Assembly (NCBI RefSeq): GCF_049645325.1 | Contig: NZ_JBARTQ010000245.1 | Location: 4,447-68,446 of the forward strand | Reading direction: 5' to 3' | Source: Pseudomonas sp. | GTDB lineage: Bacteria; Pseudomonadota; Gammaproteobacteria; Pseudomonadales; Pseudomonadaceae | DNA length: 64,000 bases | In this document: piece by piece, positions 11,144 to 36,187 of the stretch | How positions within the stretch are numbered: position 1 is the first letter of the stretch | Layout of the letters: each line of letters begins with the position of its first letter | The notes under the pieces: model-generated | Told to the model about the DNA's origin: nothing | Seen by the model: the letters and a program-made list of their open reading frames with translations, nothing else | The model's database searches: none | Made by a program: the position numbers and the translations under genes

Positions 11144-11158
11144 CAGGAGTTGAACACA

Positions 11159-11958: not shown

Positions 11959-12007
11959 GCAGGGCTCCACGTCAGAAGTGCCGGGGCTTGAGGGCCCCGG
12001 CCGGGGG

Positions 12008-12598
12008 TTAGTTGCGCGATGGAAAGATCCCGTTCAAGGCAATGCTGAAGTTGATCGCCAGGTAGGGGTTCATGGTCGCCATGGGCTGACCTTGGCCGGC
12101 GGGGCTGATCGCGCCTCCGCTGACGGCGGTGCTGACGCCCTGCAGGGCCACCGGCGTGGCGCCCTGTTGGTCGGAATAGATCGCAGCACTGCCCGGCCCG
12201 GCGCCTGACGCGCCGATAAATGAGTTGGTGGCGGTGGGTAAGGTCACTGGGTTGCTGGCGGGCACCGCCAGTTGCACGGCGGTGGCGACAGTGATCGGCG
12301 TCATGGCATGCGTGTGGTTGGGAAGATTAAGCAGCGTAGCGGTCACCGACTCCGTGCCCGAGACCTCGCCGATGACCCGCGTCGACAGGCCCGCGCCGGC
12401 GCCCTGGCCGATGGGCATGCGACCTTGCAGGTTCGGCAGCATGAAGGTCGTTGTGCCATTGCCGCCGTAAATGATGCCGAGCAGCGAATAAAGCGCCTGG
12501 TACTGGCTGAGCGGCAAGGTTTGACCGGCGCACAGGGCCCAGTCTCTGGGGGCGAAATCAAACGCAAAGGGTTGGATGGTGCCAATGAAAACTTCCAT
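12008..12598 (-). CDS. Phage tail collar domain protein (MdpB / microcystin-dependent-protein family)
   Basis: 196 aa. It has the hallmark N-terminus (MEVFIGTIQPFAFDFAPRDWALCAGQTLPLSQYQALYSLLG..YGG.G.TTFMLPNLQGR.PIGQG) and C-terminus (MNPYLAINFSIALNGIFPSRN). Confidence 0.9.
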   Translation of the reverse strand: MEVFIGTIQPFAFDFAPRDWALCAGQTLPLSQYQALYSLLGIIYGGNGTTTFMLPNLQGRMPIGQGAGAGLSTRVIGEVSGTESVTATLLNLPNHTHAMTPITVATAVQLAVPASNPVTLPTATNSFIGASGAGPGSAAIYSDQQGATPVALQGVSTAVSGGAISPAGQGQPMATMNPYLAINFSIALNGIFPSRN

Positions 12599-12798: not shown

Positions 12799-14412
12799 GT
12801 GCGACGGTCTGTGGTAGAACAAGACGACAAAGTGGCGGCATTTCCCGCAGTCAATCGCCTTTCGGGGGCTTGGGAAGGCGCCGGCTGGCTCAGCCGGTTA
12901 TGGTGGGTGCCGATCCTGGCGCTGGCCATGGCCGCGCGCTTCTATGGCCTGACGGCGGCGGCGATCTGGGGTGACGAAGGCTCGAGCCTGCTGCTCAGCG
13001 AATACGCCATGGACGACCTGTGGTTTCACGCCGCCCATGATGTGCACCCGCCGCTGTATTTCTTCATGCTGCGTGGCTGGATCGAGGTATTTGGCGACAG
13101 CATCTGGTCGATTCGGGGCATGAGCGCCATTCCCGGTGTGGTCGCGGTGGGCCTGGGCATCTGGCTGACGCGCACGCTGTCGACCCGGCGCGCCGCCCTG
13201 CTGGCAGGCGTGCTGCTGGCGCTGTTTCCCACCGCGGTGCGTTACAGCCAGGAAGTGCGGATGTACTCGCTGCTGGCCGTGTGGTTGCTGGGCGCCACGC
13301 TCGCGCTGGTGTACTGGGTGCGCCAGCCTGCGCGCACGCGGTACCTGGCGGTTTACGTGCTGCTGATGGCTGCCGGGTTCTACACCCATTACTTCACAGC
13401 GTTGTGCGTGCTGGTGCATTGGCTCTATCTGGGGCTGTTATGCACCTGCCAGGCACCGGGCCAACGCTTGATTATCCGCCCGTCGTGGTGGTGCGCAAAT
13501 ACCGCGATTGTGGCGTTATACCTGCCCTGGCTGCCGAACCTGCTTGACTTGACCCAGCACATTGATCAGCTCAAGGTCGGCGGTGACATAGGGTGGGAAG
13601 ACCCGGTTTCGCTTATTTCCGTACCGTCGATGATCTGGCAGTTCACGCTTCAGGATGAAGGCATTGGTTTCTGGCCGCCGTTGTTCTGGCTGTTCCCACT
13701 GCTCTTGATCGCTGTCGTGGTTATTACTGCGTGGCGTGATCACGATCGCTATCGTCCGGCTTGCCTGATGGCGTTGTTCCTCCTGCTGCCACTGCTGCTG
13801 GTATACGGGGTTTCGTTTATTTCCCCGGTCTTTATCGAGCGCTATCTCACCGTATACGCGCTGGGTTTGCCGCTCCTGCTGGCGCTGGCCATCGATCGTC
13901 TGCCCAAACGCCTTTCGTGGCTGGGCGCAGTGTTGTTTGTGCTATTTGTCGGTGTGGAGCTGCTGGGGTTGAAGAACAACGCCACCGTGGACGTGCATAA
14001 TCAATTCAATGTGCCGGTAGAGTTCGTTAACCGCAATTATCAGGAGGACGACCGTATCGTCCTCAGCGACATGCTGTGGTACCTCCCCTACGTGTATTAC
14101 GACCAGACCGACGCGCAATTGCAGCTATACACGCCGCCCAAACCCGACGGCACATCAACGCGGCCAAACGCCTATGGCTTTGGCACCCTGGTGGACCAGG
14201 ACGGCGGCCGCATTTACCTTGACCGCCTTTCGGCATTGCCGGCGGATACACGTCGCGTCTGGCTGATCAGCAGCAACGAAATGCCGGACGATTTCGCGCC
14301 GATTCCCGAAGGCTGGCGACAATTGTTGCAGCAGGACGGTGGCGGTGCGCGGGCACGGTTATTTGTACTGTGCCGCGGGCCAGAGCCCTCGCAGCCTGAG
14401 GGCTGCCACTAA
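12799..14412 (+). CDS. Glycosyltransferase family 39 (PMT_2/ArnT-like, polyprenyl-phosphate-sugar dependent) membrane protein
   Basis: The ORF is 12697-14412. GTG 12799 is preferred because AGGGGA lies upstream. The protein is polytopic with a loop-1 DE motif (IWGDEGSS; GAC GAA at 12973-12978) and HPPLYFFMLRGW, followed by a ~150-aa C-terminal soluble domain. The start is uncertain by about 12 nt or more. Confidence 0.8.
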   Translation: MRRSVVEQDDKVAAFPAVNRLSGAWEGAGWLSRLWWVPILALAMAARFYGLTAAAIWGDEGSSLLLSEYAMDDLWFHAAHDVHPPLYFFMLRGWIEVFGDSIWSIRGMSAIPGVVAVGLGIWLTRTLSTRRAALLAGVLLALFPTAVRYSQEVRMYSLLAVWLLGATLALVYWVRQPARTRYLAVYVLLMAAGFYTHYFTALCVLVHWLYLGLLCTCQAPGQRLIIRPSWWCANTAIVALYLPWLPNLLDLTQHIDQLKVGGDIGWEDPVSLISVPSMIWQFTLQDEGIGFWPPLFWLFPLLLIAVVVITAWRDHDRYRPACLMALFLLLPLLLVYGVSFISPVFIERYLTVYALGLPLLLALAIDRLPKRLSWLGAVLFVLFVGVELLGLKNNATVDVHNQFNVPVEFVNRNYQEDDRIVLSDMLWYLPYVYYDQTDAQLQLYTPPKPDGTSTRPNAYGFGTLVDQDGGRIYLDRLSALPADTRRVWLISSNEMPDDFAPIPEGWRQLLQQDGGGARARLFVLCRGPEPSQPEGCH

Positions 14413-14518
14413 TTACAAATCGGCATTAGACGAATGCCAAAATAGTGGCAAATGCCCACTAGTCGACACTGCAATCCTCAGCTACGCTTCGGCCACAAAT
14501 GGATTTTTGGCCTACAAA

Positions 14519-15364
14519 GTGGTGAACGGATTGCAGTATCACTTCATCTCGGGTTTGCCGCGTTCCGGATCGACCCTGCTCTCTGCCATTTTGTTGCAGA
14601 ACCCGCGTTTTCACGCGGGCATGACCAGCCCGGTGGGGTCACTGTTCTGCAGCGTACTGGACCAGTGCAGCGCGGGCAGTGAGTTCGGCGCGGTGATCGA
14701 TACCCACATGCGCCGTCGCCTTCTGCGCGGCCTGTTCGACTCCTATTACGCTGACAAGGCCGATAAACCGGTGGTGTTCGACACCAACCGCCTGTGGAGC
14801 TCGCGTCTTCCGGCCATCAATGATCTGTTCCCTCAGGCCAAGGTCATCGCCTGCGTGCGCAATGTTGCGTGGGTCATGGACAGCCTGGAGCGTCTGTACC
14901 GCGCCAACCCCTTCGAAAACACCAAACTGTTCGTTGATGCCGCCGAACGCAACACGGTCTACAGCCGTTGCGAAACCCTCGCCCAGCGCAACCGCCTGGT
15001 CGGGTTTGCGTGGGCAGCGCTCAAGGAAGCCTATTACGGCGAGCACGCCGACTCCCTGTTGATCATCGATTACGACTTGTTGAGCCAAGCACCGGAGCGG
15101 GTCATGCGCTTGGTGTATGACTTCATCGACGAACCGTGGTTTGAACACGATTTCGACAACCTTGCCTACGACGCGCCGGCGTTTGACCAGGCGTTGGGTG
15201 TCTCGGGCTTGCATAAGGTCCAGCCCAAGGTCCGCTTGCAAACGCGCCGCACCATCTTGCCACCTGACCTGTTCCAGCAGTATGCCGAACTGTCGTTTTG
15301 GCTGGACGGGTCAGCCAGCGCCGCCAATGTAATCCGTATGAAGGCCGACGCCGCGATCAGTTGA
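14519..15364 (+). CDS. PAPS-dependent sulfotransferase (Sulfotransfer_3/TPST-like motifs)
   Basis: The 5'-PSB-like motif GLPRSGSTLL is at 14558-14581 and the 3'-PB-like motif VRNVAWVMDS at 14855-14884. The ORF is open from 14339, but its first ~60 codons overlap or follow the GT39 3' end and look non-coding. The start is therefore uncertain (GTG 14519/14522 or TTG 14531). Confidence 0.8.
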   Translation: MVNGLQYHFISGLPRSGSTLLSAILLQNPRFHAGMTSPVGSLFCSVLDQCSAGSEFGAVIDTHMRRRLLRGLFDSYYADKADKPVVFDTNRLWSSRLPAINDLFPQAKVIACVRNVAWVMDSLERLYRANPFENTKLFVDAAERNTVYSRCETLAQRNRLVGFAWAALKEAYYGEHADSLLIIDYDLLSQAPERVMRLVYDFIDEPWFEHDFDNLAYDAPAFDQALGVSGLHKVQPKVRLQTRRTILPPDLFQQYAELSFWLDGSASAANVIRMKADAAIS

Positions 15365-15413
15365 TCGCGGCGTTTCTTTTCCCTCAAAGAACGTTCGACC
15401 CCGGGTGAGCCGC

Positions 15414-18400
15414 ATGTGGTGGAGCAATCGCAAGTCGCGGGGTACGCAAGCCTTACAGGCGCGGGTCTCGCCAATGATCATGCACCTGGAACCGCGCATG
15501 CTGTTCGACGGCGCAGTCGCCGCCACCGTGGCCGAAGCGGCGCAACCTGACAGCCATCCCACCGCCGACGCCGCCAAGCCGCCCACAGCCGATCACCCGA
15601 CCGTGAGCAAAGACACCCACGGCCAGGCCGATGCGCCTGCCGTTTCACCTGTGGCCGTGCCCGGGCAAACCGTGTTGTTTGTGGACGCCCGAGTCAAAGA
15701 CTCCGCCAGCTTGTTGCAAGGCGTGGCGCCGGGTACCCAGGTGGTCCAGCTGGACGCGAGCAAAGACGGCCTGCAGCAAATTGCCGACTACCTCGACACC
15801 CATCAGGGCGTCAGCTCGGTGCAGGTCATTGCCCATGGCAACGCGGGCGATCTCTGGCTCGGCACCACCTACCTGTCGGCCGACAACGTCGCGGCGCGCA
15901 GCGCGGTGCTGGGGCAGATCGGCAAAGACATGAACGTCGGCGGCGACATCCTGATCTACGCCTGCTACACCGCAGAAGGCCAGCGTGGCGTGGACTTTGT
16001 CGACTCGCTCGCCGCGTTGACCGGCCGCGATGTCGCAGCGTCCACTAACCGCACCGGCGTGGGTGGCGACTGGAACCTCGAAATCGCCACCGGCAGCATT
16101 GAAAGCGCCAATGTGCTCTCGACCAAAGCCATGAGCGAGTATCAGTGGGGACTGGCCACCTGGACCGCCACCAACAACCTCGACAGCGGGGCCAATTCCC
16201 TGCGTGCGGAACTGGCCCTGGCGCAGAACGGTGACATCGTCACGTTCAGTGCATCAATGACGGTTAATTTGAACAGTGAGTTGCTGGTCAACAAAAACAT
16301 CACGATCGATGGCGACCTTAACAACGACGGCGTTGCCGACGTCACGTTGAGCGGCCAGTACAAAACCCGGGTGATTGAAGTGGCGTCCGGCAGCACCGTA
16401 GTGCTGGATGGCTTGGTGATCACCAAGGGCTTGGCAGCCGGCGACGGTGCCAACAGTGGTTTCACCGCCGGTAACGCGTTGGGCGGCGGTATTTTGAACG
16501 CCGGCAACCTGACCCTGAGAAACGTCACCGTGACCGCCAATGCGGCGTCGGGCGGCGGTGGCGGCGGTGGCGTGACCCCAATTTACGCCGGCGGCTCCGG
16601 CGGCGGCGGTGGCGGGGTGGGTGGCGCTGGCGGCGGCAGCGGCGGTAACACGACAGCCCAAGGGCGGCCGACGTATTTTGGTACGGCTGGCGGCTCAGGC
16701 GCCGGTGGCATCGGCGGCAGCTATGACTCGGTCCACCTCGGTGGCCGAGGCGGCGCAGTCAGCGGTGCCGGCGGTACAGGCGGCACGTCGGGTGCGTCGG
16801 GCTACAGCGTTGGCGGCAACGGCGGCACCGCGGGCATCGGCGGTATCACCGTGGGCGGCGGCGGTGGCGGCTCGGGTTGGAACAAAGTCGGTGGCATCGG
16901 TGGCTCTGCCGCTGGCGGCATCTACAACTCCGGCACACTCACCGTGGTTGGCACTTCGCACATCACCGGCAACATTGCGGCTGGGGGCGGTGGCGGCGGT
17001 GGCGGCGGGTTGGCGAGCTATGGCGGGAGCGTCGACAACGGCGGTGCCGCAGGCCAGGGTATCGGCGGCATCTGGAACAAAGGCACGTTGCTGATCACGG
17101 CTGCCAACTTTTCGGCCTTGAGCGGTAACGTCGGTGGCAGCGGCTCGGGTGGCGGCGCCTCGGGTGGCGGTACCAATGGCAGCAGCCCGACGGCGGTTAC
17201 CAACTTGCGTAACGACGGCACCCTCAATCAAAACTTTATCGAACCGCCGACCGCAACCATCGTGGTGGCGGACACGACGTTGTCCATCGGCGAGACCTCG
17301 TTGGTGACCATCACCTTCAGCACGGCGGTGACCGGTTTCACCAACGCTGACCTGACTGTCGCCAACGGCAGCCTGTCGGCGGTCAGCAGCGGCGACGGCG
17401 GGATCACCTGGACCGCGACCTTCACGCCCAACTCGGCCATCAGCGACAACACCAACCTCATCACCCTGGATAACACCGGGGTGCAAAGCGTCACCGGCAG
17501 CGTGGTGGGCGTTGGTACCAGCGAATCCAACAACTATATCGTTGACACCATAAGGCCCACGGCATCCATCGTGGTGGCGGACACCTCATTGGTAATCGGT
17601 GAAACCTCGTTGGTCACCATTACCTTCAGCGAAGCGGTGACCGGCTTCACCAATGCCGACCTGACCATTGCCAACGGCACCCTGAGTAATGTCTCGTCCT
17701 CTGACGGCGGCACTACCTGGACCGCGACCCTCACGCCCACCTCCAGCGTCAACGACGCCACCAACCTCATCACCCTGAATAACAGCGGGGTCAACGACAT
17801 CGCGGGCAATGCCGGCTCGGGCAATACGGATTCAAACAATTACGCAGTCAATACTGTGCGCCCTACGGCAACGGTGGTGGTCGCCGACACCGTCCTGGCG
17901 ATTGGCGAAACATCGCTGGTGACCATTACGTTCAGCGAGGCCGTGACCGGCTTCACCACCGCCGACCTGACTGTCGCAAACGGCAGCGTCTCGGGTTTGA
18001 GCAGCAGCGACGGCGGTGTCACCTGGACCGGCACGTTAACGCCGACCAACAGCATCACTGACACCACCAACGTGGTGACGCTGGACAATACCGGTGTCAG
18101 CAACCAAGCCGGTAACGCCGGCTCCGGGAGTACCAACTCCAATAACTACGCGGTCGATACACAGCGTCCTACCGCAACGGTCCTGGTCGCCAACTCCAGC
18201 CTGGCGATTGGTCAATCGTCGCAAGTGACTATTACCTTCTCGGAGGCGGTGAGCGGGTTCACCAATGCCGACCTGACCGTCGCTAACGGTTCATTGAGCG
18301 CCGTCAGCAGCAGCGATGGCGGCATCACGTGGACGGCGACCCTGACGCCCAGCGCTGCCGTGACGGACAGTACCAACCTGATCACGCTGACCAACAGCGG

Positions 18401-21400
18401 TGTCAGCGATCAGGCAGGCAATGCCGGTGCAGGCACTACCGCCTCTAATAACTATGCGGTCGATACCACTCGGCCAACCGCGACCGTCGTGGTGGCCAAT
18501 GCCGCTTTGGCCCTCGGTCAGACCTCCGTGGTGACGATCACCTTCAGTGAAGCGGTGACCGGGTTCACCAATGCCGACCTGACCATCGCCAACGGTTCGT
18601 TGTCCGCCGTGAGCAGCAGTGACGGCGGCATCACGTGGACGGCAACCTTCACGCCGTCGGCAAACATCACTGATACCACCAATATCATTACGCTGGATAA
18701 CACCGGTGTCAGCGACACGGCGGGCAATGCCGGAACGGGCACCACCTATTCCAATAACTACAGCATCGACACCCAGCGGCCCACCGCGACCATCGTGCTT
18801 GCAGACCCGGTATTGACCGCCGGCGAAACCTCGCGGGTGACCATCACGTTCAGCGAGGCGGTGAGCGGTTTCACGAATGCCGACCTGACGGTTCCCAATG
18901 GCACCTTGACGGCGGTCAGCAGCAGCGATGGCGGTGTTACCTGGACCGCCACCTTCACCCCAACGACAGGCGTCAACGACGCCACCAACATCATCACCCT
19001 GGCCAACACCGGCATCGCCGACCTGGCCGGCAATGTCGGGTCGGGCACCTCAAACTCGGCGAACTACACGATCGACACCGTACTGCCGACGGCGACCATC
19101 GTGGTCGCGGACAACGCGCTGAACATTGGCGAAACCTCGCGGGTGACCATCACGTTCAGCGAGGCGGTGACCGGTTTCAGCAATGCCGACTTGACCGTTG
19201 CCAACGGCACCTTGACGGCCGTGAGCAGCAGTGACGGCGGTGTCACCTGGACGGCTACCCTGACGCCAACCACCGCCATCACCGACGCGTCCAACCTGAT
19301 CGTGCTCGACAACAGCGGCGTGCAGAACGGCTCGGGCAATATCGGCAGCGGCACCACGAACTCCAACAATTACGCCATCGACACCCAGCGCCCAACGGCG
19401 ACAATCGTGGTCGGCAACGATCACTTGGGGATTGGCGGTACCTCCACGGTCACCATTACCTTCAGTGAGGCGGTAAGCGGGCTCACCAACGCCGACCTGA
19501 CCGTCGATAACGGTATCGTCAGTGGCTTGACCACCAGCGACAACATCACCTACACCGCGACCCTGACGCCCACGGGCAACATCACCCAAGCCAACAACCA
19601 TGTGGTTCTCGACAATTCAGGCGTGGCTGATGTCGCCGGCAACAGCGGCGCCGGCACTACCAGCTCTAACGTTTACGCTGTCGACAGCGTAAGGCCGACG
19701 GCAACCATCGTGGTAGCAAGCCCGACCCTGGCTGCCGGGCAGACCTCATTGGTGACCATCACCTTCAGTGAAGCGGTTACGGGGTTCGACAACAGCGACC
19801 TGAGTGTGCCCAACGGCACCCTCTCGGCGGTGAGCAGCGCGGACGGCGGCATAACCTGGACGGCCACGTTTACCCCGACCAATGGGGTTCACGACACCAC
19901 CAACCTGATCACCCTGAATAACCCGGGCGTCAGCGATCTGGCCGGTAATACGGGCACGGGCGTCACCAACTCCGGCAACTTCACCATTGACACCGTACAA
20001 CCGACCGCGACTATCGTGGTGGCGGACAGCGCTTTGAAAGCCGGTGACACCTCATTGGTCACCGTCACCTTCAGCGAAGCAGTGAGCGGGTTCAGCAATG
20101 CCGACCTGACCGTTGCCAACGGTACGTTGACGGGTTTGAGCAGCAGCGACGGCGGCATCACCTGGACGGCTACCTTCACGCCGACCAGCAACATCACCGA
20201 CACGACCAACCTGATCACGCTGGATAACACCGGCGTGACGAACGCCTCCGGCAACGTCGGCAGTGGCACCACCGATTCGAACAATTACAGCATCGACACG
20301 CAACGGCCGACGGCAACCATCGTGGTCGCCAACAACGGCTTGAACATCGGCGCAACCTCGTTGGTGACCATCACCTTCAGCGAGGCCGTGAGCGGCTTCA
20401 CCAACGCCGACCTGACGGTCGCCGATGGCACCCTGAGCAACGTCAGCAGCAGTGACGGCGGGATCACCTGGACTGCCACCTTGACACCCGCCAATGGCGT
20501 GACCCACACCAGTGATGTGATCACGCTGAACAATGCCGGTATCAACGATCTGGCCGGCAACACAGGCGCGGGCACCACGACGTCCAACACCTACAGCGTC
20601 GACACCCAGCCACCAACGGCCTCAATCGTGGTCGCCAGCTCCACCTTGGCCATCGGCCAAACCTCGTTGGTGACCATCACCTTCAGTGAAGCGGTTACGG
20701 GGTTCGACAACAGCGACCTGAGTGTGCCCAACGGTACGTTGAGCGCGGTGAGCAGCAGCGATGGCGGCATCACCTGGACAGCGACCTTTACCCCGACCAG
20801 CAACATTCACGACACCACCAATGTGGTCAGCCTGAACAATTCCGGGGTCGCCGACCTGGCCGGCAACGCGGGTGCGGGCGTGACCAACTCGGGTAATTTC
20901 AGCATCGATACCGTGCGGCCAACGGCAACCATCGTGGTCGCCGACAGTGCGTTAAGCGTGGGCGAGACCTCATCCGTCACGATCACCTTCAGCGAAGCGG
21001 TCACCGGCTTCACCAACGCCGACCTGATCACCGCCAACGGCACCTTGAGTGCGGTGAGCAGCAGTGACGGCGGCATCACGTGGACGGCAACCTTCACGCC
21101 CACCAACGCGATCACCGACACCAGCAACGTGATCACCCTGGACAACAGCGGTGTGCAGAATGCATCCGGCAATGCCGGCAGCGGCACCACCGATTCCAAC
21201 AATTACGCCATCGACACCCAGCGGCCGACGGCAAGCATCGTCGTCGCCAACACTGGCCTGAACATTGGCGCAACCTCGCGGGTGACCATCACCTTCAGCG
21301 AGGCCGTGAGCGGCTTTACCAACGCCGACCTGACCGTCGCCGATGGCACCTTGAGCAACGTGAGCAGCAGTGACGGCGGGATCACCTGGACCGCTACCCT

Positions 21401-23294
21401 GACGCCAACCGGCGGCGTAACCCATACCGGCGACGTCATCACGCTGAACAATGCCGGTGTTAACGACCTGGCCGGCAACAGCGGCGCGGGCTCCACCCAG
21501 TCGAATGACTACAACGTCGATACCCAGGCGCCGACCGCCACGGTCGTGATCGCCAACCCGACCCTGGCCCTTGGCCAAACGTCCGTGGTGACCATCACCT
21601 TCAGTGAGGCCGTCAGCGGGTTCGACAACAACGACCTCAGCGTGCCTAACGGCAGCCTGTCGGCGGTGAGCAGCGCGGATGGCGGTGTGACCTGGACGGC
21701 GACCTTTACCCCGACCCGCAACATTCACGACACCACCAACCTGATCACCCTGAACAACACCGGGGTTGCAGACCTGGCCGGCAACGCGGGCACGGGCATG
21801 ACCGGTTCGGGCAATTTCAGCATCGACACCGTGCAGCCGACCGCGACCGTCGTGGTCGATCACAGCGCCCTCAAAGTCGGCGAGACCGCCCAAGTGACCA
21901 TCACCTTCAGCGAGGCGGTCAACGGTTTCACGACCGCTGACCTGAGTGTGGCCAATGGCAGCCTGAGCAATCTCGCTTCCAGCGACGGCGGCGTGACCTG
22001 GACCGCGACGCTGACGCCGACGGCCAACATCACCGACACCAGCAACATGATCACGCTGGACAACAGCGGCGTGCAGAACGCCTCGGGCAATGCGGGCAGC
22101 GGCACCACCGACTCCAACAACTACGCCATCGACACCCAGCGCCCGACGGCAACGATTTCTGTGGCCAACGGCACCCTTGGCATCGGGCAAACCACCACGG
22201 TTACGATCGCCTTCAGTGAGGCTGTCACCGGCTTCAACCTCTCGCAACTGAGCGTGGCCAATGGCGTGCTGTCCGGCCTGGCAAGCCTGGACGGCGGCAA
22301 AACCTGGACGGCCACCCTGACGCCAACCGCCGCCATTACCGACGCGACCAACCTGGTTGTGCTCGACAGCAGCCAGGTCAGCGACGCCGCCGGAAACGCC
22401 GGCAGCGGCATTGCGATCTCCAATAACTACGCAATCGACGGCGAACGCCCCACTGCGACCATCAGCATTGCCAACCCGAACCTGACTGTCGGCCAGACCA
22501 CCACCGTAACCTTCGCCTTCAGCGAGAAAGTCTCCGGCTTCAACCTGGATGACTTGAGCGTAGCCAGTGGCACGCTCTCTAACCTGGCGAGCAGCGACGG
22601 CGGCAAGACCTGGACCGCCACCCTCACGCCGACAGCCAACCTCAACGACCCGAGCAACTTCATCACCCTCGATACCCGCCTGGTGACGGACCTGTCGGGC
22701 AATGCGGGCAACGGCTATGCCAACTCCAATAACTACGCGATCAACACCGTCACGCTGACCGGCGACCCCCTGTTCCGCGTCACTGACCCGGCACCGCCCC
22801 AGGGCGCACCGAACGTGCCATTGCAGCCGATCATTTTTAGCCCGCCGGCGGGCAGTCTCGGCTCACCGCTCGGTTTCCCGCCGCTGTTCGAGCAGCGTGA
22901 AGTCGGCGCAGGGTTGCCGCCGATCGGCAGTATCTTTATCCACAACGGTGCTACGGCGCCCAGCTTTATCGCCCAGGTGTTCAGCACCAACGGCAGTGGA
23001 GACGGCAGCGGCAAAGGCTTCCTCGGCTTTGGCGGCGGCGATGGCGGCGTGTTTGGTTCAAGCACCTTGTCGAGTCTGTTCAACCGTGAAACCGGCGGCG
23101 AAAACAGCTCACTCAACGCGTTCGACAACAAACCTATCAAAGGCCAGGGCGACCCGGCCCAAGGGCTGCGCGGCGTATTCGGCGCGCCGACCCTCGGCCA
23201 GCAATTGCAACAGCTCAAAGACACCGAACAACGCCAGGTGATTGACCTGGCGAAGGCACTGCAACAGGTCGGCATCAGCGAAATGCAGGCCTGA
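15414..23294 (+). CDS. Giant (~2,626 aa) surface/secreted repeat protein: LEPRxLFDGA motif, DUF4347 domain, beta-helix-like and Gly-rich region, 18 bacterial Ig-like repeats, and a Pro/Gly-rich C-terminus
   Basis: This is a single uninterrupted ORF (GTG 15405 or ATG 15414). The LEPRMLFDGA motif is at 15486-15515. The DUF4347 hallmark is present (VLFVDARVKD...VQVIAHGNAGDLWLG...ILIYACYTA...LTGRDVAASTNRTG). There are 18 repeats of ~102 aa. No Sec signal peptide is present. Confidence 0.9.
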   Translation: MWWSNRKSRGTQALQARVSPMIMHLEPRMLFDGAVAATVAEAAQPDSHPTADAAKPPTADHPTVSKDTHGQADAPAVSPVAVPGQTVLFVDARVKDSASLLQGVAPGTQVVQLDASKDGLQQIADYLDTHQGVSSVQVIAHGNAGDLWLGTTYLSADNVAARSAVLGQIGKDMNVGGDILIYACYTAEGQRGVDFVDSLAALTGRDVAASTNRTGVGGDWNLEIATGSIESANVLSTKAMSEYQWGLATWTATNNLDSGANSLRAELALAQNGDIVTFSASMTVNLNSELLVNKNITIDGDLNNDGVADVTLSGQYKTRVIEVASGSTVVLDGLVITKGLAAGDGANSGFTAGNALGGGILNAGNLTLRNVTVTANAASGGGGGGGVTPIYAGGSGGGGGGVGGAGGGSGGNTTAQGRPTYFGTAGGSGAGGIGGSYDSVHLGGRGGAVSGAGGTGGTSGASGYSVGGNGGTAGIGGITVGGGGGGSGWNKVGGIGGSAAGGIYNSGTLTVVGTSHITGNIAAGGGGGGGGGLASYGGSVDNGGAAGQGIGGIWNKGTLLITAANFSALSGNVGGSGSGGGASGGGTNGSSPTAVTNLRNDGTLNQNFIEPPTATIVVADTTLSIGETSLVTITFSTAVTGFTNADLTVANGSLSAVSSGDGGITWTATFTPNSAISDNTNLITLDNTGVQSVTGSVVGVGTSESNNYIVDTIRPTASIVVADTSLVIGETSLVTITFSEAVTGFTNADLTIANGTLSNVSSSDGGTTWTATLTPTSSVNDATNLITLNNSGVNDIAGNAGSGNTDSNNYAVNTVRPTATVVVADTVLAIGETSLVTITFSEAVTGFTTADLTVANGSVSGLSSSDGGVTWTGTLTPTNSITDTTNVVTLDNTGVSNQAGNAGSGSTNSNNYAVDTQRPTATVLVANSSLAIGQSSQVTITFSEAVSGFTNADLTVANGSLSAVSSSDGGITWTATLTPSAAVTDSTNLITLTNSGVSDQAGNAGAGTTASNNYAVDTTRPTATVVVANAALALGQTSVVTITFSEAVTGFTNADLTIANGSLSAVSSSDGGITWTATFTPSANITDTTNIITLDNTGVSDTAGNAGTGTTYSNNYSIDTQRPTATIVLADPVLTAGETSRVTITFSEAVSGFTNADLTVPNGTLTAVSSSDGGVTWTATFTPTTGVNDATNIITLANTGIADLAGNVGSGTSNSANYTIDTVLPTATIVVADNALNIGETSRVTITFSEAVTGFSNADLTVANGTLTAVSSSDGGVTWTATLTPTTAITDASNLIVLDNSGVQNGSGNIGSGTTNSNNYAIDTQRPTATIVVGNDHLGIGGTSTVTITFSEAVSGLTNADLTVDNGIVSGLTTSDNITYTATLTPTGNITQANNHVVLDNSGVADVAGNSGAGTTSSNVYAVDSVRPTATIVVASPTLAAGQTSLVTITFSEAVTGFDNSDLSVPNGTLSAVSSADGGITWTATFTPTNGVHDTTNLITLNNPGVSDLAGNTGTGVTNSGNFTIDTVQPTATIVVADSALKAGDTSLVTVTFSEAVSGFSNADLTVANGTLTGLSSSDGGITWTATFTPTSNITDTTNLITLDNTGVTNASGNVGSGTTDSNNYSIDTQRPTATIVVANNGLNIGATSLVTITFSEAVSGFTNADLTVADGTLSNVSSSDGGITWTATLTPANGVTHTSDVITLNNAGINDLAGNTGAGTTTSNTYSVDTQPPTASIVVASSTLAIGQTSLVTITFSEAVTGFDNSDLSVPNGTLSAVSSSDGGITWTATFTPTSNIHDTTNVVSLNNSGVADLAGNAGAGVTNSGNFSIDTVRPTATIVVADSALSVGETSSVTITFSEAVTGFTNADLITANGTLSAVSSSDGGITWTATFTPTNAITDTSNVITLDNSGVQNASGNAGSGTTDSNNYAIDTQRPTASIVVANTGLNIGATSRVTITFSEAVSGFTNADLTVADGTLSNVSSSDGGITWTATLTPTGGVTHTGDVITLNNAGVNDLAGNSGAGSTQSNDYNVDTQAPTATVVIANPTLALGQTSVVTITFSEAVSGFDNNDLSVPNGSLSAVSSADGGVTWTATFTPTRNIHDTTNLITLNNTGVADLAGNAGTGMTGSGNFSIDTVQPTATVVVDHSALKVGETAQVTITFSEAVNGFTTADLSVANGSLSNLASSDGGVTWTATLTPTANITDTSNMITLDNSGVQNASGNAGSGTTDSNNYAIDTQRPTATISVANGTLGIGQTTTVTIAFSEAVTGFNLSQLSVANGVLSGLASLDGGKTWTATLTPTAAITDATNLVVLDSSQVSDAAGNAGSGIAISNNYAIDGERPTATISIANPNLTVGQTTTVTFAFSEKVSGFNLDDLSVASGTLSNLASSDGGKTWTATLTPTANLNDPSNFITLDTRLVTDLSGNAGNGYANSNNYAINTVTLTGDPLFRVTDPAPPQGAPNVPLQPIIFSPPAGSLGSPLGFPPLFEQREVGAGLPPIGSIFIHNGATAPSFIAQVFSTNGSGDGSGKGFLGFGGGDGGVFGSSTLSSLFNRETGGENSSLNAFDNKPIKGQGDPAQGLRGVFGAPTLGQQLQQLKDTEQRQVIDLAKALQQVGISEMQA
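17244..22751 (+). repeat. In-frame tandem array of 18 x ~306 bp (Ig-like domain repeats), with a 918-bp (3-unit) higher-order periodicity in its distal two thirds
   Basis: Each unit starts with (R/Q/P)PTA(T/S)(I/V)VVA and ends with SNNY.(I/V)DT. Antisense shadow ORFs recur at exactly 918-nt spacing (19673/20591/21509, 19889/20807, 20285/21203). Confidence 0.9.
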
Positions 23295-23335
23295 ACATAC
23301 TTAACTCAAGGCGCAGGAACAGGGGCGGTCCAAGG

Positions 23336-24850
23336 ATGAAAACAGGTCATAAATTGTTCGGCGCCAGCCTGCTGGCGCTGGCGATCAGCGGTTGTGCGGT
23401 CACCAGCGAGCCGATTGAACGCAGTGTCAGTGAGCAGCGAGCCCGCAGCGATCTGCAAGGCATGTACAAGGACCAGGAACCGCTGAGCGGCCCGCTGACG
23501 CTGCACCAGGCCATGGCCCGCGCCGTCAAGTACAACCTCGAAGGCCGCCTGAAAGTCATGGAGGAAGCCCTGGCCAAGCGCCAATCGGACCTCTCAAGCT
23601 TCGACATGCTGCCGCGCATGGCGCTGTCCGCAGGCTACGCCGGGCGCAACAACACCAACGCCTCCAGCAGCCAGAGCGTGCTCACCGGCACCCAGTCCCT
23701 GGAACCGTCGACGTCCCAGGACCGCGACCGACGCGTGGCCGACCTGACCATGGTCTGGAACGTGCTCGACTTCGGCGTCAGCTACATCAGCGCCAAGCAG
23801 CAAGGCGACCAGCGCCTGATCATTCAGGAACGCCGGCGCAAGGTGATCAACACCATCGTGCAGGACGTGCGCTCGGCCTATTGGCGCGCAGTAGCGGCTG
23901 AACGTTTGCTGACCCAGATCGACAGCCTGATGGCGCGGGTTGACCAAGCCCAGACCAACAGCCAGAGCATGAGCGAGCAGCGCATCGGCGACCCGGTGCA
24001 GGCATTGGGTTACCAGCGCTCGCTGATCGAAGCCACGCGCCAATTGCAGGAACAGCGCCGCGCCTTGTCGTTGGCCAAGACCGAACTCGCGACTTTGATC
24101 AACCTGCCAATGGGCACCGACCTCAAGCTGGCAACGCCCGATAACTACAGCGTGCCAGAGCTCAAGGTCAACCTGGCCAGCCTGGAGCAGGAAGCCCTGG
24201 CCAACCGCCCGGAACTGCGCGAGCAGGACTACCAGACCCGCATCAGCGCCGCCGAAACCCGCAAAGCCATGCTGCGCCTGCTGCCGGGCCTGGAGTTCTC
24301 GGCGGGCGGGCATTACGACAGCAACTCGTTCCTGACCGACAACCGCTGGGCCGACTACGGCGCCAAGATCACCTGGAACCTGTTCAACGTGATCTCCGCA
24401 CCCGCCGCCATCGATGTCGCCAAGGCCGGTGAAGAAGTCGCCACCGCGCGGCGCCAGGCGATGTCCATCGCCGTGCTGGCGCAGGTCTACGTGGCCAACG
24501 CCAACTACCAGGACGCCGTGCGCCAGTTCAAGACCAACGACCAGTTGGCCAACATCGACGGGCAAATCCTCACGCAACTGCGCAACCGCCACGAGGCGGC
24601 GGGCCTTGGCGAACTCGACCTGATCCAGGGCGAACTCAACACCCTGCAAGCTGACCTGCGCCGTGACCTGGCCTACGCCGACCTGCGCAACGCTTACGGC
24701 CAGATCTTCGCCAGCGCCGGGCTCGACCCACTGCCCGAACAGCTGGATTCCGACCGCGTACAGGCCATCGCCACCGCGCTGGCCAGTCGCGAATCAGCCT
24801 GGGCCGCCGGCAATATCACCCCGCCGGTGCCGCGTGCCGTCGCCCAGTAA
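23336..24850 (+). CDS. TolC-family outer-membrane efflux/secretion lipoprotein
   Basis: 504 aa, starting 41 nt after the giant gene. It has a lipobox (LALAISGC) and a two-repeat TolC-like helical/barrel sequence. Confidence 0.85.
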   Translation: MKTGHKLFGASLLALAISGCAVTSEPIERSVSEQRARSDLQGMYKDQEPLSGPLTLHQAMARAVKYNLEGRLKVMEEALAKRQSDLSSFDMLPRMALSAGYAGRNNTNASSSQSVLTGTQSLEPSTSQDRDRRVADLTMVWNVLDFGVSYISAKQQGDQRLIIQERRRKVINTIVQDVRSAYWRAVAAERLLTQIDSLMARVDQAQTNSQSMSEQRIGDPVQALGYQRSLIEATRQLQEQRRALSLAKTELATLINLPMGTDLKLATPDNYSVPELKVNLASLEQEALANRPELREQDYQTRISAAETRKAMLRLLPGLEFSAGGHYDSNSFLTDNRWADYGAKITWNLFNVISAPAAIDVAKAGEEVATARRQAMSIAVLAQVYVANANYQDAVRQFKTNDQLANIDGQILTQLRNRHEAAGLGELDLIQGELNTLQADLRRDLAYADLRNAYGQIFASAGLDPLPEQLDSDRVQAIATALASRESAWAAGNITPPVPRAVAQ

Positions 24851-24854
24851 CCTG

Positions 24855-25445
24855 GTGGCGCCGACGGCGAGCGTCACTCGCCGTCAACGCGAGGCGCGCA
24901 ACGGGCATCTCGGCGTGGCGATCCTGCTCACCGGGCTGCCGGCCTCCGGCAAGTCCACCCTGGCCCAGGGCCTGCAGGCGGCGCTGTTCGAACAGGGCCG
25001 GCAAAGTCTCGTACTCGACGGCGATGCCTTGCGCGGCGGCCTCAATAAAGACCTGGGGTTCGCCGACAGCGACCGCCTGGAAAACATCCGCCGCGCCAGC
25101 GAACTCGCGGCGTTGCTGGTGGACAACGGGCACATCGTGATTCTCGCGATGATCGCGCCGCTGGTCGAACTGCGCGCGGTATTCGCCGAGCGCCTTGGCG
25201 CGGATTATCGCGAAGTGTGGTGCAGCGCCTCATTGGCGGTGTGCGAAGGGCGCGACCCCAAAGGGCATTACGCACGGGCGCGCAGGGGCGAGCTGCCGGG
25301 GTTTACCGGTATCGGTTCGCCGTACGAAGCGCCGCCGCACGCGTCGCTGGTGCTCGACACTGGCGCGTTATCGGCGCAGCAGTGCGTCGAGCGGCTATTG
25401 GCCTGGCTGGCACCTGAACTAGACTCTGGGGAATCGTTTTCTTAG
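24855..25445 (+). CDS. cysC: Adenylyl-sulfate (APS) kinase, stand-alone
   Basis: The P-loop GLPASGKST is at 24933-24959, followed by LDGDALRGGLNKDLGFADSDRLENIRR, the APS kinase signature. GTG 24855 lies 4 nt after the TolC stop. The start is moderately uncertain. Confidence 0.85.
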   Translation: MAPTASVTRRQREARNGHLGVAILLTGLPASGKSTLAQGLQAALFEQGRQSLVLDGDALRGGLNKDLGFADSDRLENIRRASELAALLVDNGHIVILAMIAPLVELRAVFAERLGADYREVWCSASLAVCEGRDPKGHYARARRGELPGFTGIGSPYEAPPHASLVLDTGALSAQQCVERLLAWLAPELDSGESFS

Positions 25446-25454
25446 GAGTCCACC

Positions 25455-25700
25455 ATGGAATCGCCTGTGCACAGCTTGCCGTCACTGTTCAAACAGCTCG
25501 GGCTGCCGGATGACCCGGTGAGCATTGAGAAATTTGTGGCCGTCCATTCACCACTTAAACCGGAGCTGCACCTGGCGGATGCGTTTTTCTGGACGGATAG
25601 CCAGAAGGCGTTTTTGCGCGAGGAGATTTTGGAGGACGCGGATTGGGCTGAGGTGGTGGATGAGTTGAATGTGCTATTGCGCTCTGGGCGAAACTTGTAA
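25455..25700 (+). CDS. DUF2789-family small protein
   Basis: 81 aa, starting 9 nt after the cysC stop. The sequence (LPSLFKQLGLPDDPVSIEKFV..H.PL......LADAFFWT.SQ..FL) matches my recollection of DUF2789. Confidence 0.7.
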   Translation: MESPVHSLPSLFKQLGLPDDPVSIEKFVAVHSPLKPELHLADAFFWTDSQKAFLREEILEDADWAEVVDELNVLLRSGRNL

Positions 25701-25968: not shown

Positions 25969-26415
25969 GTGTCTCAAACCCTCGAACAACTCCAGATGAA
26001 CCTCAGCAGCAGCATGGTGGTGGGCGCCCGTAACTGGCGCAAAATCTGCCAGACCACGCTGGTGAGCTATGGAATTTCCGAAGCCTGCGCCGTGCCGTTG
26101 CTGATGATCGGGCGCTTGGGCGACGGGGTGCATCAGGTAAAAGTCGCCCAGGCGTCCGGGATGGAAAGCCCGTCGCTGGTGCGCCTGCTCGACCAGCTGT
26201 GCGCGGGCGGCTATGTGTGCCGCACCGAAGACGTACACGACCGCCGCGCCAAGGCCTTGAGCCTCACCGAGCGTGGCCGTGAGCTGGTGCACGCGGTGGA
26301 AGTGCAACTGGTGCGCCTGCGCCAGGAAGTACTGGCCGACATCGCCCACGATGACCTTGAAGCCGCGCTGCGCGTACTGCGAGCCTTCGAAGCGGCCGAG
26401 GTGATGACCCCTTGA
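25969..26415 (+). CDS. MarR-family transcriptional regulator
   Basis: 148 aa with a GTG start. The winged-helix region is present (HQVKVAQASGMESPSLVRLLDQLCAGGYVCRTEDVHDRRAKALSLTERG). It is the first gene of the FUSC efflux operon and overlaps the next gene by 4 nt. Confidence 0.85.
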   Translation: MSQTLEQLQMNLSSSMVVGARNWRKICQTTLVSYGISEACAVPLLMIGRLGDGVHQVKVAQASGMESPSLVRLLDQLCAGGYVCRTEDVHDRRAKALSLTERGRELVHAVEVQLVRLRQEVLADIAHDDLEAALRVLRAFEAAEVMTP

Positions 26416-28490
26416 ACGGCTTTTTTACCGGCATGCCCCCTGCGAAAGACTGGTTCTACGGCGTTCGAACCTTCGCAGCATCAATGATCGCCTTGTACAT
26501 CGCCATGCTCATGCAAATGCCGCGTCCGTATTGGGCGATGGCCACCGTGTATATCGTCTCCAGCCCGTTTGTCGGCCCTACCAGTTCGAAGGCGCTGTAC
26601 CGTGCTGTCGGCACCTTCATGGGGGCGGCCGCCGCGGTGATTTTTGTGCCGATGTTTGTGCAGGCGCCTTATGTGCTGGTGGTGGTGATTGCGCTGTGGA
26701 CGGGCATCTTGCTGTTCCTGTCCATGCACCTGCGCACGGCCAATAACTACGCGCTGATGCTCGCCGGCTACACCTTGCCGCTGATTGCGCTGCCGGTGGT
26801 GGATAACCCGTTGGCGGTGTGGGACGTGGCAGAGGCGCGGACCGAAGAAATCTTCCTCGGCATTGCCGTCGCCGCCGTGGTGGGCGCGATGTTCTGGCCG
26901 CGCCGGCTGATGCCGGTGTTCGACGACTCGGTAGCCAAGTGGTTTGCCGACGCGCAGGTCTACAGTCGACGCTTTTTGACCCGCAATGTGGACATTGAAG
27001 AAATCAGCACGCTGCGGGGCGGCATGGTCGCTACCTTCAACACCCTGGAATTGATGATCGGCCAGTTACCCCACGAAGGCGCGCGGCCGCAGACGGTGCG
27101 CAACACCAAGGAACTGCGCGGGCGCATGATTCACCTGCTGCCCGTGGTGGATGCCCTCGACGATGCGCTGTATGCCATCGAGCACCGCGCGCCGGAGTTT
27201 CTCGACCGCCTCGCGCCGATGCTGGAAGCCGCCGATGAATGGCTGGAAAGCACACAGGACAGTGCTCCGCTGGAACGCTGGCGTGCCCTGCGTGATCAAC
27301 TCGACGCGCTGCAGCCTCAGGGCGAAGCACTCGATGACCGCCACACGCTGCTGTTCTCCAACGCCCTGTACCGCCTCGGCGAGTGGATCGACCTGTGGCA
27401 AGACTGCCGCAGCCTGCAAGCCGCGATCCAGTGCGAAAGCCAGGACACCTGGCGCGCCGTGTATCGCCACTGGCGCCTGGGCCGGCTTACGCCGTTCCTC
27501 GACCGTGGCCTGATGTTCTACTCGGCGTTTTCCACCGTGAGCGCGATCATCGTCGCCTCGGTGCTGTGGATTCTGCTGGGCTGGACCGACGGCGGCAGCG
27601 CGGTGATCCTGGCGGCGGTGGCATGCAGCTTTTTCGCCACGATGGACGACCCGGCGCCGCAGATTTACCGGTTCTTTTTCTGGACCGCGATGTCGGTGCT
27701 GTTCGCCAGCCTTTATCTGTTTCTGGTACTGCCCAACCTGCATGACTTCCCGATGCTGGTGCTGGCGTTTGCCGTGCCGTTTATCTGCATCGGCACGCTC
27801 ACCGTGCAGCCGCGCTTCTACCTCGGCATGTTGCTGACGCTGGTGAACACCTCGTCATTCATCAGCATCCAGGGCGCCTACGACGCTGACTTTCTGAACT
27901 TCGCCAACGTCAACCTGGCCGGGCCCGTGGGCTTGCTGTTTGCGTTTGTGTGGACCCTGATCGCACGGCCTTTCGGCGCCGAGCTGGCGGCCAAACGCCT
28001 GACCCGTTTCAGCTGGCGCGACATTGTCAGCCTCACCGAGCCTGCGACCCTGGCCGAACACCGGCACATGGCCGCGCAAATGCTCGACCGCCTGATGCAG
28101 CACCTGCCGCGCCTTGCCCTGATCGGCCACGACACCGGCAGCGCGCTGCGCGATTTGCGCGTGGCGCTGAACCTGCTCGACCTGCTGGCCTACTCGCCGC
28201 GCATCTACGGCGTGCCGCGTGTGTTGCTCAACCAGGTGGTGGAAGGCGTGGGCGGTTACTTCAAGGCGTGCCTCAAGGCGGGTGAACGCTTGCCCGCGCC
28301 GAGCGGTCTGCTGATGACCCTGGACCGCACGCGCCGCGCCCTCAACGGCCAGGGCCTGCAAGACGAAGACGATACCCGCCTGCATTTGCTGCACGCACTG
28401 GCCGGCTTGCGCCTGTCGTTGCTGCCGGGCGTGGAATTTATTGGCGGCACCGAGATGGAAGCGCCGCTGCCTGATGGAGCGCCTTTATGA
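26412..28490 (+). CDS. FUSC-family (fusaric acid resistance / AaeB-like) inner-membrane efflux protein
   Basis: 692 aa with two hydrophobic blocks separated by a helical cytoplasmic region. Its context (DUF1656, HlyD and OMF genes) is typical of this operon type. Confidence 0.85.
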   Translation: MNGFFTGMPPAKDWFYGVRTFAASMIALYIAMLMQMPRPYWAMATVYIVSSPFVGPTSSKALYRAVGTFMGAAAAVIFVPMFVQAPYVLVVVIALWTGILLFLSMHLRTANNYALMLAGYTLPLIALPVVDNPLAVWDVAEARTEEIFLGIAVAAVVGAMFWPRRLMPVFDDSVAKWFADAQVYSRRFLTRNVDIEEISTLRGGMVATFNTLELMIGQLPHEGARPQTVRNTKELRGRMIHLLPVVDALDDALYAIEHRAPEFLDRLAPMLEAADEWLESTQDSAPLERWRALRDQLDALQPQGEALDDRHTLLFSNALYRLGEWIDLWQDCRSLQAAIQCESQDTWRAVYRHWRLGRLTPFLDRGLMFYSAFSTVSAIIVASVLWILLGWTDGGSAVILAAVACSFFATMDDPAPQIYRFFFWTAMSVLFASLYLFLVLPNLHDFPMLVLAFAVPFICIGTLTVQPRFYLGMLLTLVNTSSFISIQGAYDADFLNFANVNLAGPVGLLFAFVWTLIARPFGAELAAKRLTRFSWRDIVSLTEPATLAEHRHMAAQMLDRLMQHLPRLALIGHDTGSALRDLRVALNLLDLLAYSPRIYGVPRVLLNQVVEGVGGYFKACLKAGERLPAPSGLLMTLDRTRRALNGQGLQDEDDTRLHLLHALAGLRLSLLPGVEFIGGTEMEAPLPDGAPL

Positions 28491-36175: not shown

Positions 36176-36187
36176 AAGAGCCTGACC

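Follow-up and report, generated by a model that had tools for sequence, protein, structure and literature searches.

What does a bacterial sulfotransferase act on when its gene stands immediately upstream of one that codes for a giant repeat protein? The question is raised by a 64,000 nt stretch of Pseudomonas sp. DNA (positions 4,447 to 68,446 of contig NZ_JBARTQ010000245.1, assembly GCF_049645325.1; here called the window), in which the gene for a 281 aa sulfotransferase (14519-15364, + strand; Pfam Sulfotransfer_3, E 2e-14) precedes that for a protein of 2,626 aa (15414-23294, + strand; Pfam DUF4347, E 8e-49, and 18 Big_12 repeats), hereafter the giant. An initial annotation, made from the letters alone, had placed both in a module of six same-strand genes, together with a glycosyltransferase, an outer-membrane channel, an APS (adenosine 5'-phosphosulfate) kinase and a DUF2789 protein, and had proposed the giant, or a glycan attached to it, as a substrate for glycosylation and/or sulfation. 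All six open reading frames (ORFs) are present, their domains are recognised by Pfam, and the gaps between them are as short as described. On evidence that is computational throughout, we favour, with a probability of about 0.5, a process in which the giant would be sulfated in the cytoplasm at the expense of 3'-phosphoadenosine 5'-phosphosulfate (PAPS), and would then be exported by a set that lacks an ATPase and consists of an outer-membrane factor (OMF), two membrane-fusion proteins (MFPs) and an M50 protease fused to a membrane-fusion domain (M50-MFP).

The sulfotransferase is, judged by its sequence and its predicted structure, a true full-length homologue of RaxST: a PAPS-dependent, cytoplasmic enzyme with a fold predicted to resemble that of the tyrosylprotein sulfotransferases (TPST). 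The identity to RaxST of Xanthomonas oryzae pv. oryzae is 42% over 266 of the 267 RaxST residues (BLASTP, E 3e-78; RaxST sequence from Fig. S6 of PMC6637879), so that the analogy with the Rax system drawn in the initial annotation is closer than was stated there. Chains of human TPST1 are the best sequence match in the PDB (E 6e-4). The AlphaFold2 model of the protein, with a predicted local distance difference test (pLDDT) value of 95, finds TPST1/2 chains at Foldseek PDB ranks 1-13 (E 1e-10 to 1.5e-8, TM 0.54-0.66), with the CurM/OLS and heparan-sulfate sulfotransferases ranking lower (E 1e-5 to 1e-7). The assignment as a PAPS-type enzyme is borne out by the 5'-phosphosulfate-binding loop 'GLPRSGSTLL' with R15 and by R114 and S122 of the 3'-phosphate-binding motif, all of which are invariant among 45 diverse homologues, as are E124 and H232. 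R15 and S122 align with R11 and S118 of RaxST at equal motif spacing, and these two RaxST residues are essential (PMC6637879). The window belongs to a Pseudomonas of the fluorescens group, and orthologues of its sulfotransferase are found at 89-100% identity in numerous other species, P. mandelii, P. jessenii and P. koreensis among them.

The context of the gene was followed across genomes. A search of 1.84 billion cluster representatives returned 340 sulfotransferase clusters at E 1e-30 or better, and from a scan of one genome per species the best 80 of 362 confirmed relatives were used (55-92% identity, many genera). Loci were labelled from stop-to-stop ORFs with phmmer/HMM labels and Pfam spot checks; the counts given here are not phylogeny-corrected, and loci derived from metagenome-assembled genomes (MAGs) may carry errors. 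A DUF4347 giant is the next same-strand gene after the sulfotransferase in 58 of 78 informative loci, and two further cases were seen in L061 (frameshifted) and L036. This co-occurrence, counted across genomes, spans Pseudomonas, Chitiniphilus, Pelomonas, Undibacterium, Massilia, Dokdonella and Thiorhodococcus, as well as Microvirga, Methylobacter, Cellvibrio, Moritella/Photobacterium, Caulobacteraceae and cyanobacteria. Sulfotransferase and giant are thus a deeply conserved gene pair.

Most of the exceptions adjoin other large proteins of secreted type. These include giants of the two-partner secretion (TPS)/ESPR type (downstream of the sulfotransferase in L031, upstream in L062 and L063), RTX or cadherin proteins (L074, L052), pectate-lyase-like or beta-helix proteins (L064, L071) and a Hint-domain protein (L081). 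In one Methylobacter MAG a single ORF (L075, 9314-10843) is a fusion, with a DUF4347 domain at aa 48-191 and a RaxST-type sulfotransferase at aa 233-431; the next gene downstream codes for a DUF4347 giant, and the case rests on a single contig. Given the recurrence of the pairing across many bacterial groups, large secreted proteins are probably sulfated. Of the two modifications proposed for the giant in the initial annotation, sulfation is supported by this pairing, while glycosylation is not, as the glycosyltransferase gene accompanies only 11 of the 80 loci.

The giant itself is, as had been described, a Thr/Ser-rich repeat protein (26% Thr plus Ser; acidic) that starts without a hydrophobic signal peptide. 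Its first 80 residues are predicted to be disordered (pLDDT < 50 in an AlphaFold2 model of aa 1-300 built with 45 homologues) and carry the motif LEPRMLFDGA (aa 25-34, nt 15486-15515), which was found by eye; a NCBIfam scan of aa 1-129 gave nothing at E 0.01 or better, and the LEPR-XLL model was not matched. A disordered linker rich in Pro, Ala, Thr and Ser (aa 45-85) leads to the DUF4347 domain (aa 87-245, nt 15672-16148; pLDDT > 90). Behind it come a Gly-rich region of about aa 250-610 and the 18 Big_12 repeats, which are Ig-like, 102 aa each, and occupy aa 611-2449 (nt 17244-22760). Neither the Gly-rich region nor the C-terminal region of ~180 aa (the last 186 aa) has a Pfam match, and the protein shows no RTX repeats and no HemolysinCabind match in Pfam. 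It may possess a C-terminal secretion signal of a non-RTX kind.

For the modelled DUF4347 domain Foldseek places 9QPE chain G first, and CED-3, legumain, caspases and C11 peptidases after it. The entry 9QPE is Tce1 (PA0256), a DUF4347 effector of the type VI secretion system that is described as a putative cysteine protease (PMC13323088). The His-Gly and Cys pair that the two proteins share is kept in the giants, with H141 present in 31 of 32 and C184 in 32 of 32 sequences, both being invariant in 45 further homologues. The predicted fold of the domain is thus clan-CD-like (caspase/legumain-like) with a conserved His/Cys pair. Protease activity is putative in both proteins, and they differ in that the domain is an N-terminal module of a giant here while Tce1 is a 200 aa effector loaded on Hcp. 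The domain is followed by a conserved aromatic-xxx-Leu (Y243, L247). C80 peptidases cleave after Leu, and we may speculate, by analogy, that DUF4347 processes itself near these residues.

How such a protein could leave the cell is suggested by the genes around the outer-membrane channel. The initial annotation had recognised this channel, a TolC-like OMF of 504 aa (23336-24850, + strand; Pfam OEP in two stretches, E 5e-39), which follows the giant gene in several genera and precedes an MFP-MFP-M50 series in many metagenome loci. Its N-terminus ends in the lipoprotein-signal-like 'ALAISGC'. No NCBIfam model matched at E 1e-3 or better, unlike for two other OMFs of the window that were checked, and the protein appears to represent a divergent TolC-like lineage. 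What had been missed are its partners, encoded at 6958-11143, and the lack of an ABC (ATP-binding cassette) transporter.

The first partner is a short HlyD-type MFP of 257 aa (MFP_a; 6958-7731, + strand; Pfam HlyD_3 and HlyD_D23) with a Sec-type signal-like N-terminus and an NCBIfam RND_mfp score of 133.6 bits against a cut-off of 94.9. The second, MFP_b (439 aa; 7728-9047, + strand; Pfam HlyD_3), has a cytoplasmic N-domain of ~170 aa (no Pfam match in aa 1-181), a single transmembrane segment (aa 178-196) and then a periplasmic HlyD domain. The third, of 698 aa (9047-11143, + strand; Pfam Peptidase_M50 and HlyD_3), combines an intramembrane metalloprotease of the M50 (site-2-protease-like) family with a membrane-fusion domain. 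Its motifs are intact (HEFGH at aa 195, NLNPFMRFDG), it has six transmembrane-like segments, and it resembles the NCBIfam 'daptide biosynthesis intramembrane metalloprotease' (E 1.4e-43, 149.5 bits, below the 300-bit cut-off).

These genes were assigned to the OMF from loci centred on its homologues. Chitiniphilus and Rubrivivax have an operon of the order sulfotransferase, giant, OMF, MFP (~260 aa), MFP (~445 aa) and M50-MFP (~705 aa), and a Rhodanobacter contig, truncated inside the giant gene, continues likewise with OMF, MFP, MFP and M50-MFP. The M50 fusions of these operons are 41-43% identical to that of the window. A 322 aa Chitiniphilus gene between giant and OMF has no Pfam match. As the order is kept in such distant taxa, the window genes at 6958-11143 are taken as the export partners of the OMF. 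A metagenome scan anchored on the M50 fusion gave 42 distant loci (35-48% identity), and a giant ORF adjoins the exporter set in 23 of the 28 that were informative.

No ABC-type ORF (at least 150 aa with Walker A and an LSGGQ-type signature) was found in the 64 kb window, in 23 Pseudomonas loci or in L084-L086, and among the 42 distant M50-anchored loci only 4 have such an ORF. What does accompany the exporter is the N-terminal motif. In the M50-anchored loci L106-L165 all 22 DUF4347 giants with a visible N-terminus carry LE(P/Q)R(I/L/M)x(F/L)D(G/A), and in the sulfotransferase-anchored set the LE(P/Q)R motif tabulated against the exporter gives 28/2/1/25 (Fisher p 2e-12, not phylogeny-corrected).

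The sulfotransferase is also paired with DUF4347 giants that lack the motif and use other modes of export or anchoring. One of these, L067 of a Moritella/Photobacterium/Cellvibrio set, has a Sec-type signal at the N-terminus of its giant and an OmpA-like beta-barrel at the C-terminus; in L070 there is a Sec-type signal peptide and the contig ends before the C-terminus, and in L080 an OmpA-like barrel is C-terminal and no Sec signal was seen in the ORF. Massilia giants without the motif follow a DUF4214 mode. As the pairing is kept across these modes, what the sulfotransferase is linked to is the protein, whatever its export route. Giants without the motif keep the sulfotransferase, and the exporter also exists without the sulfotransferase; it follows that the sulfotransferase goes with the protein and the exporter with the leader motif, and that each is separable.

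In the process that we favour, the RaxST-type enzyme would O-sulfate the giant in the cytoplasm before export, with part of the PAPS supplied by the APS kinase CysC encoded at 24855-25445 (+ strand; Pfam APS_kinase, E 2.6e-48). The acceptor would most likely be a Tyr, and the enzyme would probably recognise, or dock on, the DUF4347 end. The giant would then leave through the OMF lipoprotein, MFP_a, MFP_b and M50-MFP with no ABC ATPase, the OMF acting as exit duct, MFP_a as periplasmic adaptor, and M50-MFP as the inner-membrane component and candidate leader peptidase, for which the LE(P/Q)R motif would be the likely recognition or cleavage signal. That all of this should hold jointly, i.e. that giants are Tyr-sulfated by RaxST-type enzymes, that an ATPase-free tripartite M50-MFP secretion recognises and perhaps removes an LE(P/Q)RxxFD(G/A) leader, and that DUF4347 processes itself, we regard as a tentative proposal and rather doubtful in its entirety.

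Several observations weigh against the favoured process. A comparison of giants with and without a neighbouring sulfotransferase revealed no conserved exposed Tyr in an acidic context that could serve as acceptor, no 'DY' context is conserved among those compared, and the first 125 residues of the giant contain no Tyr. The best candidate was Y243, a position that is Tyr in 91% of sulfotransferase-linked giants and in 30% of unlinked ones (the latter being only 10 and non-independent). It is Phe or Trp in some of the linked giants, and as the trend of Tyr versus Phe is weak, Y243 was dropped as a sulfation site. The enzyme itself departs from TPST: the catalytic Glu (Glu99 of TPST2) falls opposite T36 of 'MTSPV', as determined by residue count in the TPST1 alignment, and residues 21-114, between the PAPS motifs, contain no invariant His or Glu in 45 homologues. 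The catalytic base may lie elsewhere in the sequence, and with the TPST Glu not conserved the acceptor specificity is something that we can only infer.

The distribution of the genes has its own exceptions. More distant homologues of the sulfotransferase, RaxST included, stand in other gene contexts. Several distant loci and one Pseudomonas sublineage hold giant and exporter without the sulfotransferase, which is therefore dispensable for the giant/exporter system. In this Pseudomonas-like sublineage (metagenome loci L106-L116 and L123) the order is exporter, GNAT, Collar and giant, the M50 fusion is 71-77% identical to that of the window, and at the aromatic position behind DUF4347 Phe prevails over Tyr. 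Furthermore, we know of no precedent for the export of a 2,600 aa protein without any ATPase; an ABC transporter or another energiser may be encoded elsewhere.

Finally, there is a terminator-like hairpin between the sulfotransferase and giant genes. This GC-rich, terminator- or attenuator-like element (15347-15374, + strand) has 12 pairs followed by a T-run and overlaps the stop codon of the sulfotransferase. At equivalent sites of the fluorescens group (L004-L025) it is kept with compensatory changes in the stem, as in L015 (GCTGCGGTC...GACCGCAG), and with the T-run. A hairpin conserved in this way implies that the giant gene is not simply co-transcribed with the two genes before it, and the single operon of six genes envisaged in the initial annotation is not obvious.

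Among the other explanations the one that survives best, which we still think unlikely, is that the sulfotransferase acts on a polysaccharide, a lipid or a small molecule, and is found near giants since both shape the cell surface. Its fold family, Sulfotransfer_3, includes the carbohydrate and polyketide enzymes that rank below TPST in the structural search, there is a weak NCBIfam match to the Nod-factor sulfotransferase NoeE, and the lack of the TPST Glu would agree with a non-protein acceptor. Some loci have a gene of the Asp/Asn beta-hydroxylase family nearby, a family that includes lipid A hydroxylases such as LpxO. In the window, a pgaABCD-like locus for poly-N-acetylglucosamine (PNAG) at 33635-40013, 8 kb downstream of the module, codes for a PgaA barrel with TPR repeats, a PgaB deacetylase/GHL13 protein and a PgaC of GT2 type. 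However, across the 80 loci the sulfotransferase has no conserved companion among genes of glycan or lipid biosynthesis, so that the lipopolysaccharide or PNAG, named as alternative targets in the initial annotation, are unlikely to be its substrate. The closest characterised relative, RaxST, is a protein-tyrosine sulfotransferase; what is encoded next to the enzyme is consistently a large secreted protein, drawn from one or another of several unrelated families; and in Methylobacter the enzyme is even fused to DUF4347.

It is quite improbable that the six genes form one operon in which a PMT_2-family enzyme O-glycosylates the giant at the periplasmic face and the sulfotransferase then sulfates the protein or its glycan. 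The gaps between the six + strand genes are short (106, 49, 41, 4 and 9 nt from the coordinates, the second shrinking to 40 nt if the GTG at 15405 is the start). The GT-C glycosyltransferase of 537 aa (12799-14412, + strand; Pfam PMT_2, E 9.6e-12, 45.8 bits against a cut-off of 26.1) is a polytopic protein with multiple transmembrane segments and has a DE motif (D59-E60 of 'WGDEG', 12973-12978) in its first loop, as in the PMT/GT39 O-mannosyltransferases. Its gene, where present, is always directly upstream of the sulfotransferase, between the latter and the Collar gene. The disordered linker at aa 45-85 of the giant could provide acceptors, as Pro/Ala/Thr/Ser-rich linkers of this sort resemble actinobacterial targets of O-mannosylation.

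Against this explanation, the 52 loci from outside Pseudomonas have no PMT_2 gene, the 28 Pseudomonas loci have one in 11 cases, and many Pseudomonas clusters that lack it are the same in all other respects, the linker of the giant included. The compartments also disagree: GT-C enzymes work in the periplasm and the sulfotransferase is cytoplasmic, so that a PMT-made glycan would need a periplasmic sulfotransferase. The terminator-like hairpin lies within the assumed operon, and its last gene, DUF2789 (81 aa; 25455-25700, + strand; Pfam E 8e-31), is not conserved; it occurs in one of the 80 loci, a Pseudomonas, does not follow cysC in L001-L003, and is best viewed as a bystander. The assignment to GT39 made in the initial annotation holds only at the level of Pfam PMT_2, a family broader than GT39 proper, together with the DE motif. 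Matches to curated NCBIfam models are sub-threshold (Agl23, and an archaeal mannosyltransferase with 42.9 bits against 900), and the sequence has no relative among solved structures. Being absent from most loci, PMT_2 is not a core part of the module but a lineage-specific accessory, which may glycosylate something in the strains that carry it.

A similarly improbable explanation is that the sulfotransferase and the M50-MFP/OMF set serve a substrate other than the giant, either a small peptide or a protein such as the Collar-domain one, in the manner of a system for a ribosomally synthesised and post-translationally modified peptide (RiPP), with the giant as a separate neighbour. The closest resemblance of the M50 domain is to RiPP maturation proteases (daptide, YydH/LiaK), a Collar gene is a frequent companion, and the substrate of RaxST is a 60 aa peptide exported by a leader-cleaving transporter (PMC6637879). 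Yet a RaxX-like peptide gene next to the sulfotransferase could be ruled out, as the spaces of 106 and ~45 nt around it are too short. Both the sulfotransferase and the M50 set have as their invariant neighbour the giant gene and not Collar, which the Rubrivivax and Rhodanobacter loci do without, and the LE(P/Q)R motif that tracks with the M50 set belongs to the giant. The last alternative, a chance adjacency or an ancestry shared within Pseudomonas only and devoid of any functional link, draws on the many loci from one genus, where synteny is weak evidence, but is practically negligible in view of pairings with varying gene order in three classes of proteobacteria (alpha, beta and gamma) and in cyanobacteria, found from the two independent anchors of sulfotransferase and M50 fusion.

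The favoured process, cytoplasmic sulfation of the giant followed by export, has its nearest known counterpart in the Rax system of Xanthomonas oryzae. The two have homologous sulfotransferases with the same PAPS motifs and spacing, a PAPS-supply gene in the cluster (RaxP-RaxQ there), export by an MFP and a TolC-type channel (RaxA-RaxB-RaxC there) and a peptidase fused to an export component. They differ in the candidate substrate, which is the 2,626 aa DUF4347/Ig-repeat protein here and the 60 aa RiPP RaxX there, with no raxX in the window. An M50-MFP fusion and two further MFPs take the place of an ABC transporter or a transporter containing a C39 peptidase, and the giant has the LE(P/Q)R motif instead of a Gly-Gly leader.

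Orphan raxST homologues of ~40% identity and similar length have been reported from Proteobacteria and Cyanobacteria with a patchy distribution and unknown substrates (Liu et al. 2019, PMC6637879); they were found in 'diverse genetic contexts', and no substrate was proposed (PMC6637879). The sulfotransferase family studied here fits this account, and the two gene sets may overlap. It differs in that the closest 80 relatives are mostly located immediately upstream of DUF4347 giants.

The giant can also be compared with the giant repetitive adhesin LapA of Pseudomonas and its type 1 exporter LapBCE. In both systems a giant, acidic, Thr/Ser-rich protein with Ig-like repeats and no Sec signal is encoded beside MFP and OMF genes. 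Here, by contrast, both the cluster and the window lack an ABC transporter, there are no RTX repeats and neither LapG nor LapD, the N-terminus has, instead of a retention module, a clan-CD-like domain preceded by the LE(P/Q)R motif, and the M50 protease fusion is one of three MFP-type proteins. Of the components of type 1 secretion, the MFP (HlyD_3 in three proteins) and the TolC-type OMF were found, while the ABC inner-membrane component was not, nor were C-terminal RTX repeats in the giant. Judged by the ABC component the export set is not a type 1 secretion system, and there is a substantial chance that it is a new kind of secretion system.

Of the other genes that accompany the pair, GNAT and Collar are more regular companions than the glycosyltransferase. 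A Collar gene was found in 37 of the 80 sulfotransferase loci (13 of them outside Pseudomonas) and a GNAT gene in 35 (including 15 of the 52 non-Pseudomonas loci), the latter also in Rubrivivax; in L036, L070 and L080 they form a co-directional series GNAT-Collar-sulfotransferase. In the window the GNAT acetyltransferase gene (11150-11674, + strand; Pfam Acetyltransf_1) follows the M50 fusion. The six-gene run is limited upstream by two minus-strand genes, namely Collar (a phage-tail-collar domain protein of 196 aa, 12008-12598, E 7.7e-26, divergent from the PMT_2 gene) and a small ORF paired with it (11650-11970) with a weak DUF6916 match (Pfam, 22 bits against a cut-off of 27), a name that the gene at the same position also receives in the related Pseudomonas loci L001-L003.

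The cysC gene is present in 24 of the 80 loci (16 outside Pseudomonas), and in Undibacterium and Massilia it lies immediately upstream of the sulfotransferase. Its product has the P-loop 'GLPASGKST' and scores above the NCBIfam cut-offs (TIGR00455, 188 bits against 138.7; PRK03846, 193.9 against 163), which, with its recurrence near the sulfotransferase, justifies the earlier view of a dedicated APS kinase. Some Undibacterium and Massilia loci (L045, L053 and related ones) have additional genes on the upstream side of the sulfotransferase, at a distance of about 2.5-3.5 kb: a member of the Asp/Asn beta-hydroxylase family is present in 9 loci and another Sulfotransfer_3 paralogue in 7, which suggests further modifications.

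Other parts of the window were also noted. Upstream of the exporter, a minus-strand pair at 3932-6876 (a PA5441-family protein with 984 bits in NCBIfam, and a DUF3142 protein) separates the first exporter gene from the genes of an MFP and an OMF (1115-3624); in the related loci L001-L003 these MFP and OMF genes adjoin those of the exporter directly. Downstream of the module, the region 25969-31022 is an efflux unit unrelated to it, with a MarR regulator, a FUSC/AaeB-like permease, an AaeA-like adaptor and a NodT-type OMF. Beyond the pga locus lies a two-partner secretion pair, made up of a ShlB/FhaC-type transporter (40445-42205) and a 2,699 aa TPS/filamentous-haemagglutinin protein (42237-50336). 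At the 3' end of the latter and in the small ORFs that follow (a tail to ~53000) the GC content falls to 43-52%. Judged from the sequence, this 3' end and the ORFs behind it have the look of a polymorphic toxin tip of the CdiA type, accompanied by immunity genes.

In the literature available in PubMed Central and bioRxiv, DUF4347 is mentioned in three papers and LEPR-XLL in two, always in passing, and neither these terms nor combinations of M50 with HlyD, of site-2 protease with HlyD, or of Pseudomonas sulfotransferase with adhesin led to a description of this module, in keeping with the initial annotation, which had considered a sulfated giant adhesin module undescribed in Pseudomonas. A match from P. 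fuscovaginae was discarded, as it concerns CysNC and not this locus.

To our knowledge, RaxST is the only bacterial protein-tyrosine sulfotransferase that has been proven biochemically. The synteny described here offers RaxST homologues a concrete class of candidate substrates, DUF4347 giants and other large secreted proteins, which spans hundreds of soil, plant-associated and aquatic species. The system is kin to Rax in its enzyme family and overall logic; what differs is the substrate class and the inner-membrane component. The ATPase-less OMF/MFP/M50 set beside LE(P/Q)R giants points to an undescribed export route for very large proteins, and next to nothing has been published on either DUF4347 or the LE(P/Q)R motif. 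In animals and plants sulfotyrosine drives the recognition of extracellular proteins, and for this reason sulfated bacterial adhesins could matter for attachment to hosts or surfaces. If our interpretation is true, protein sulfation would be a widespread modification of the bacterial surface and not a curiosity of a Xanthomonas peptide.

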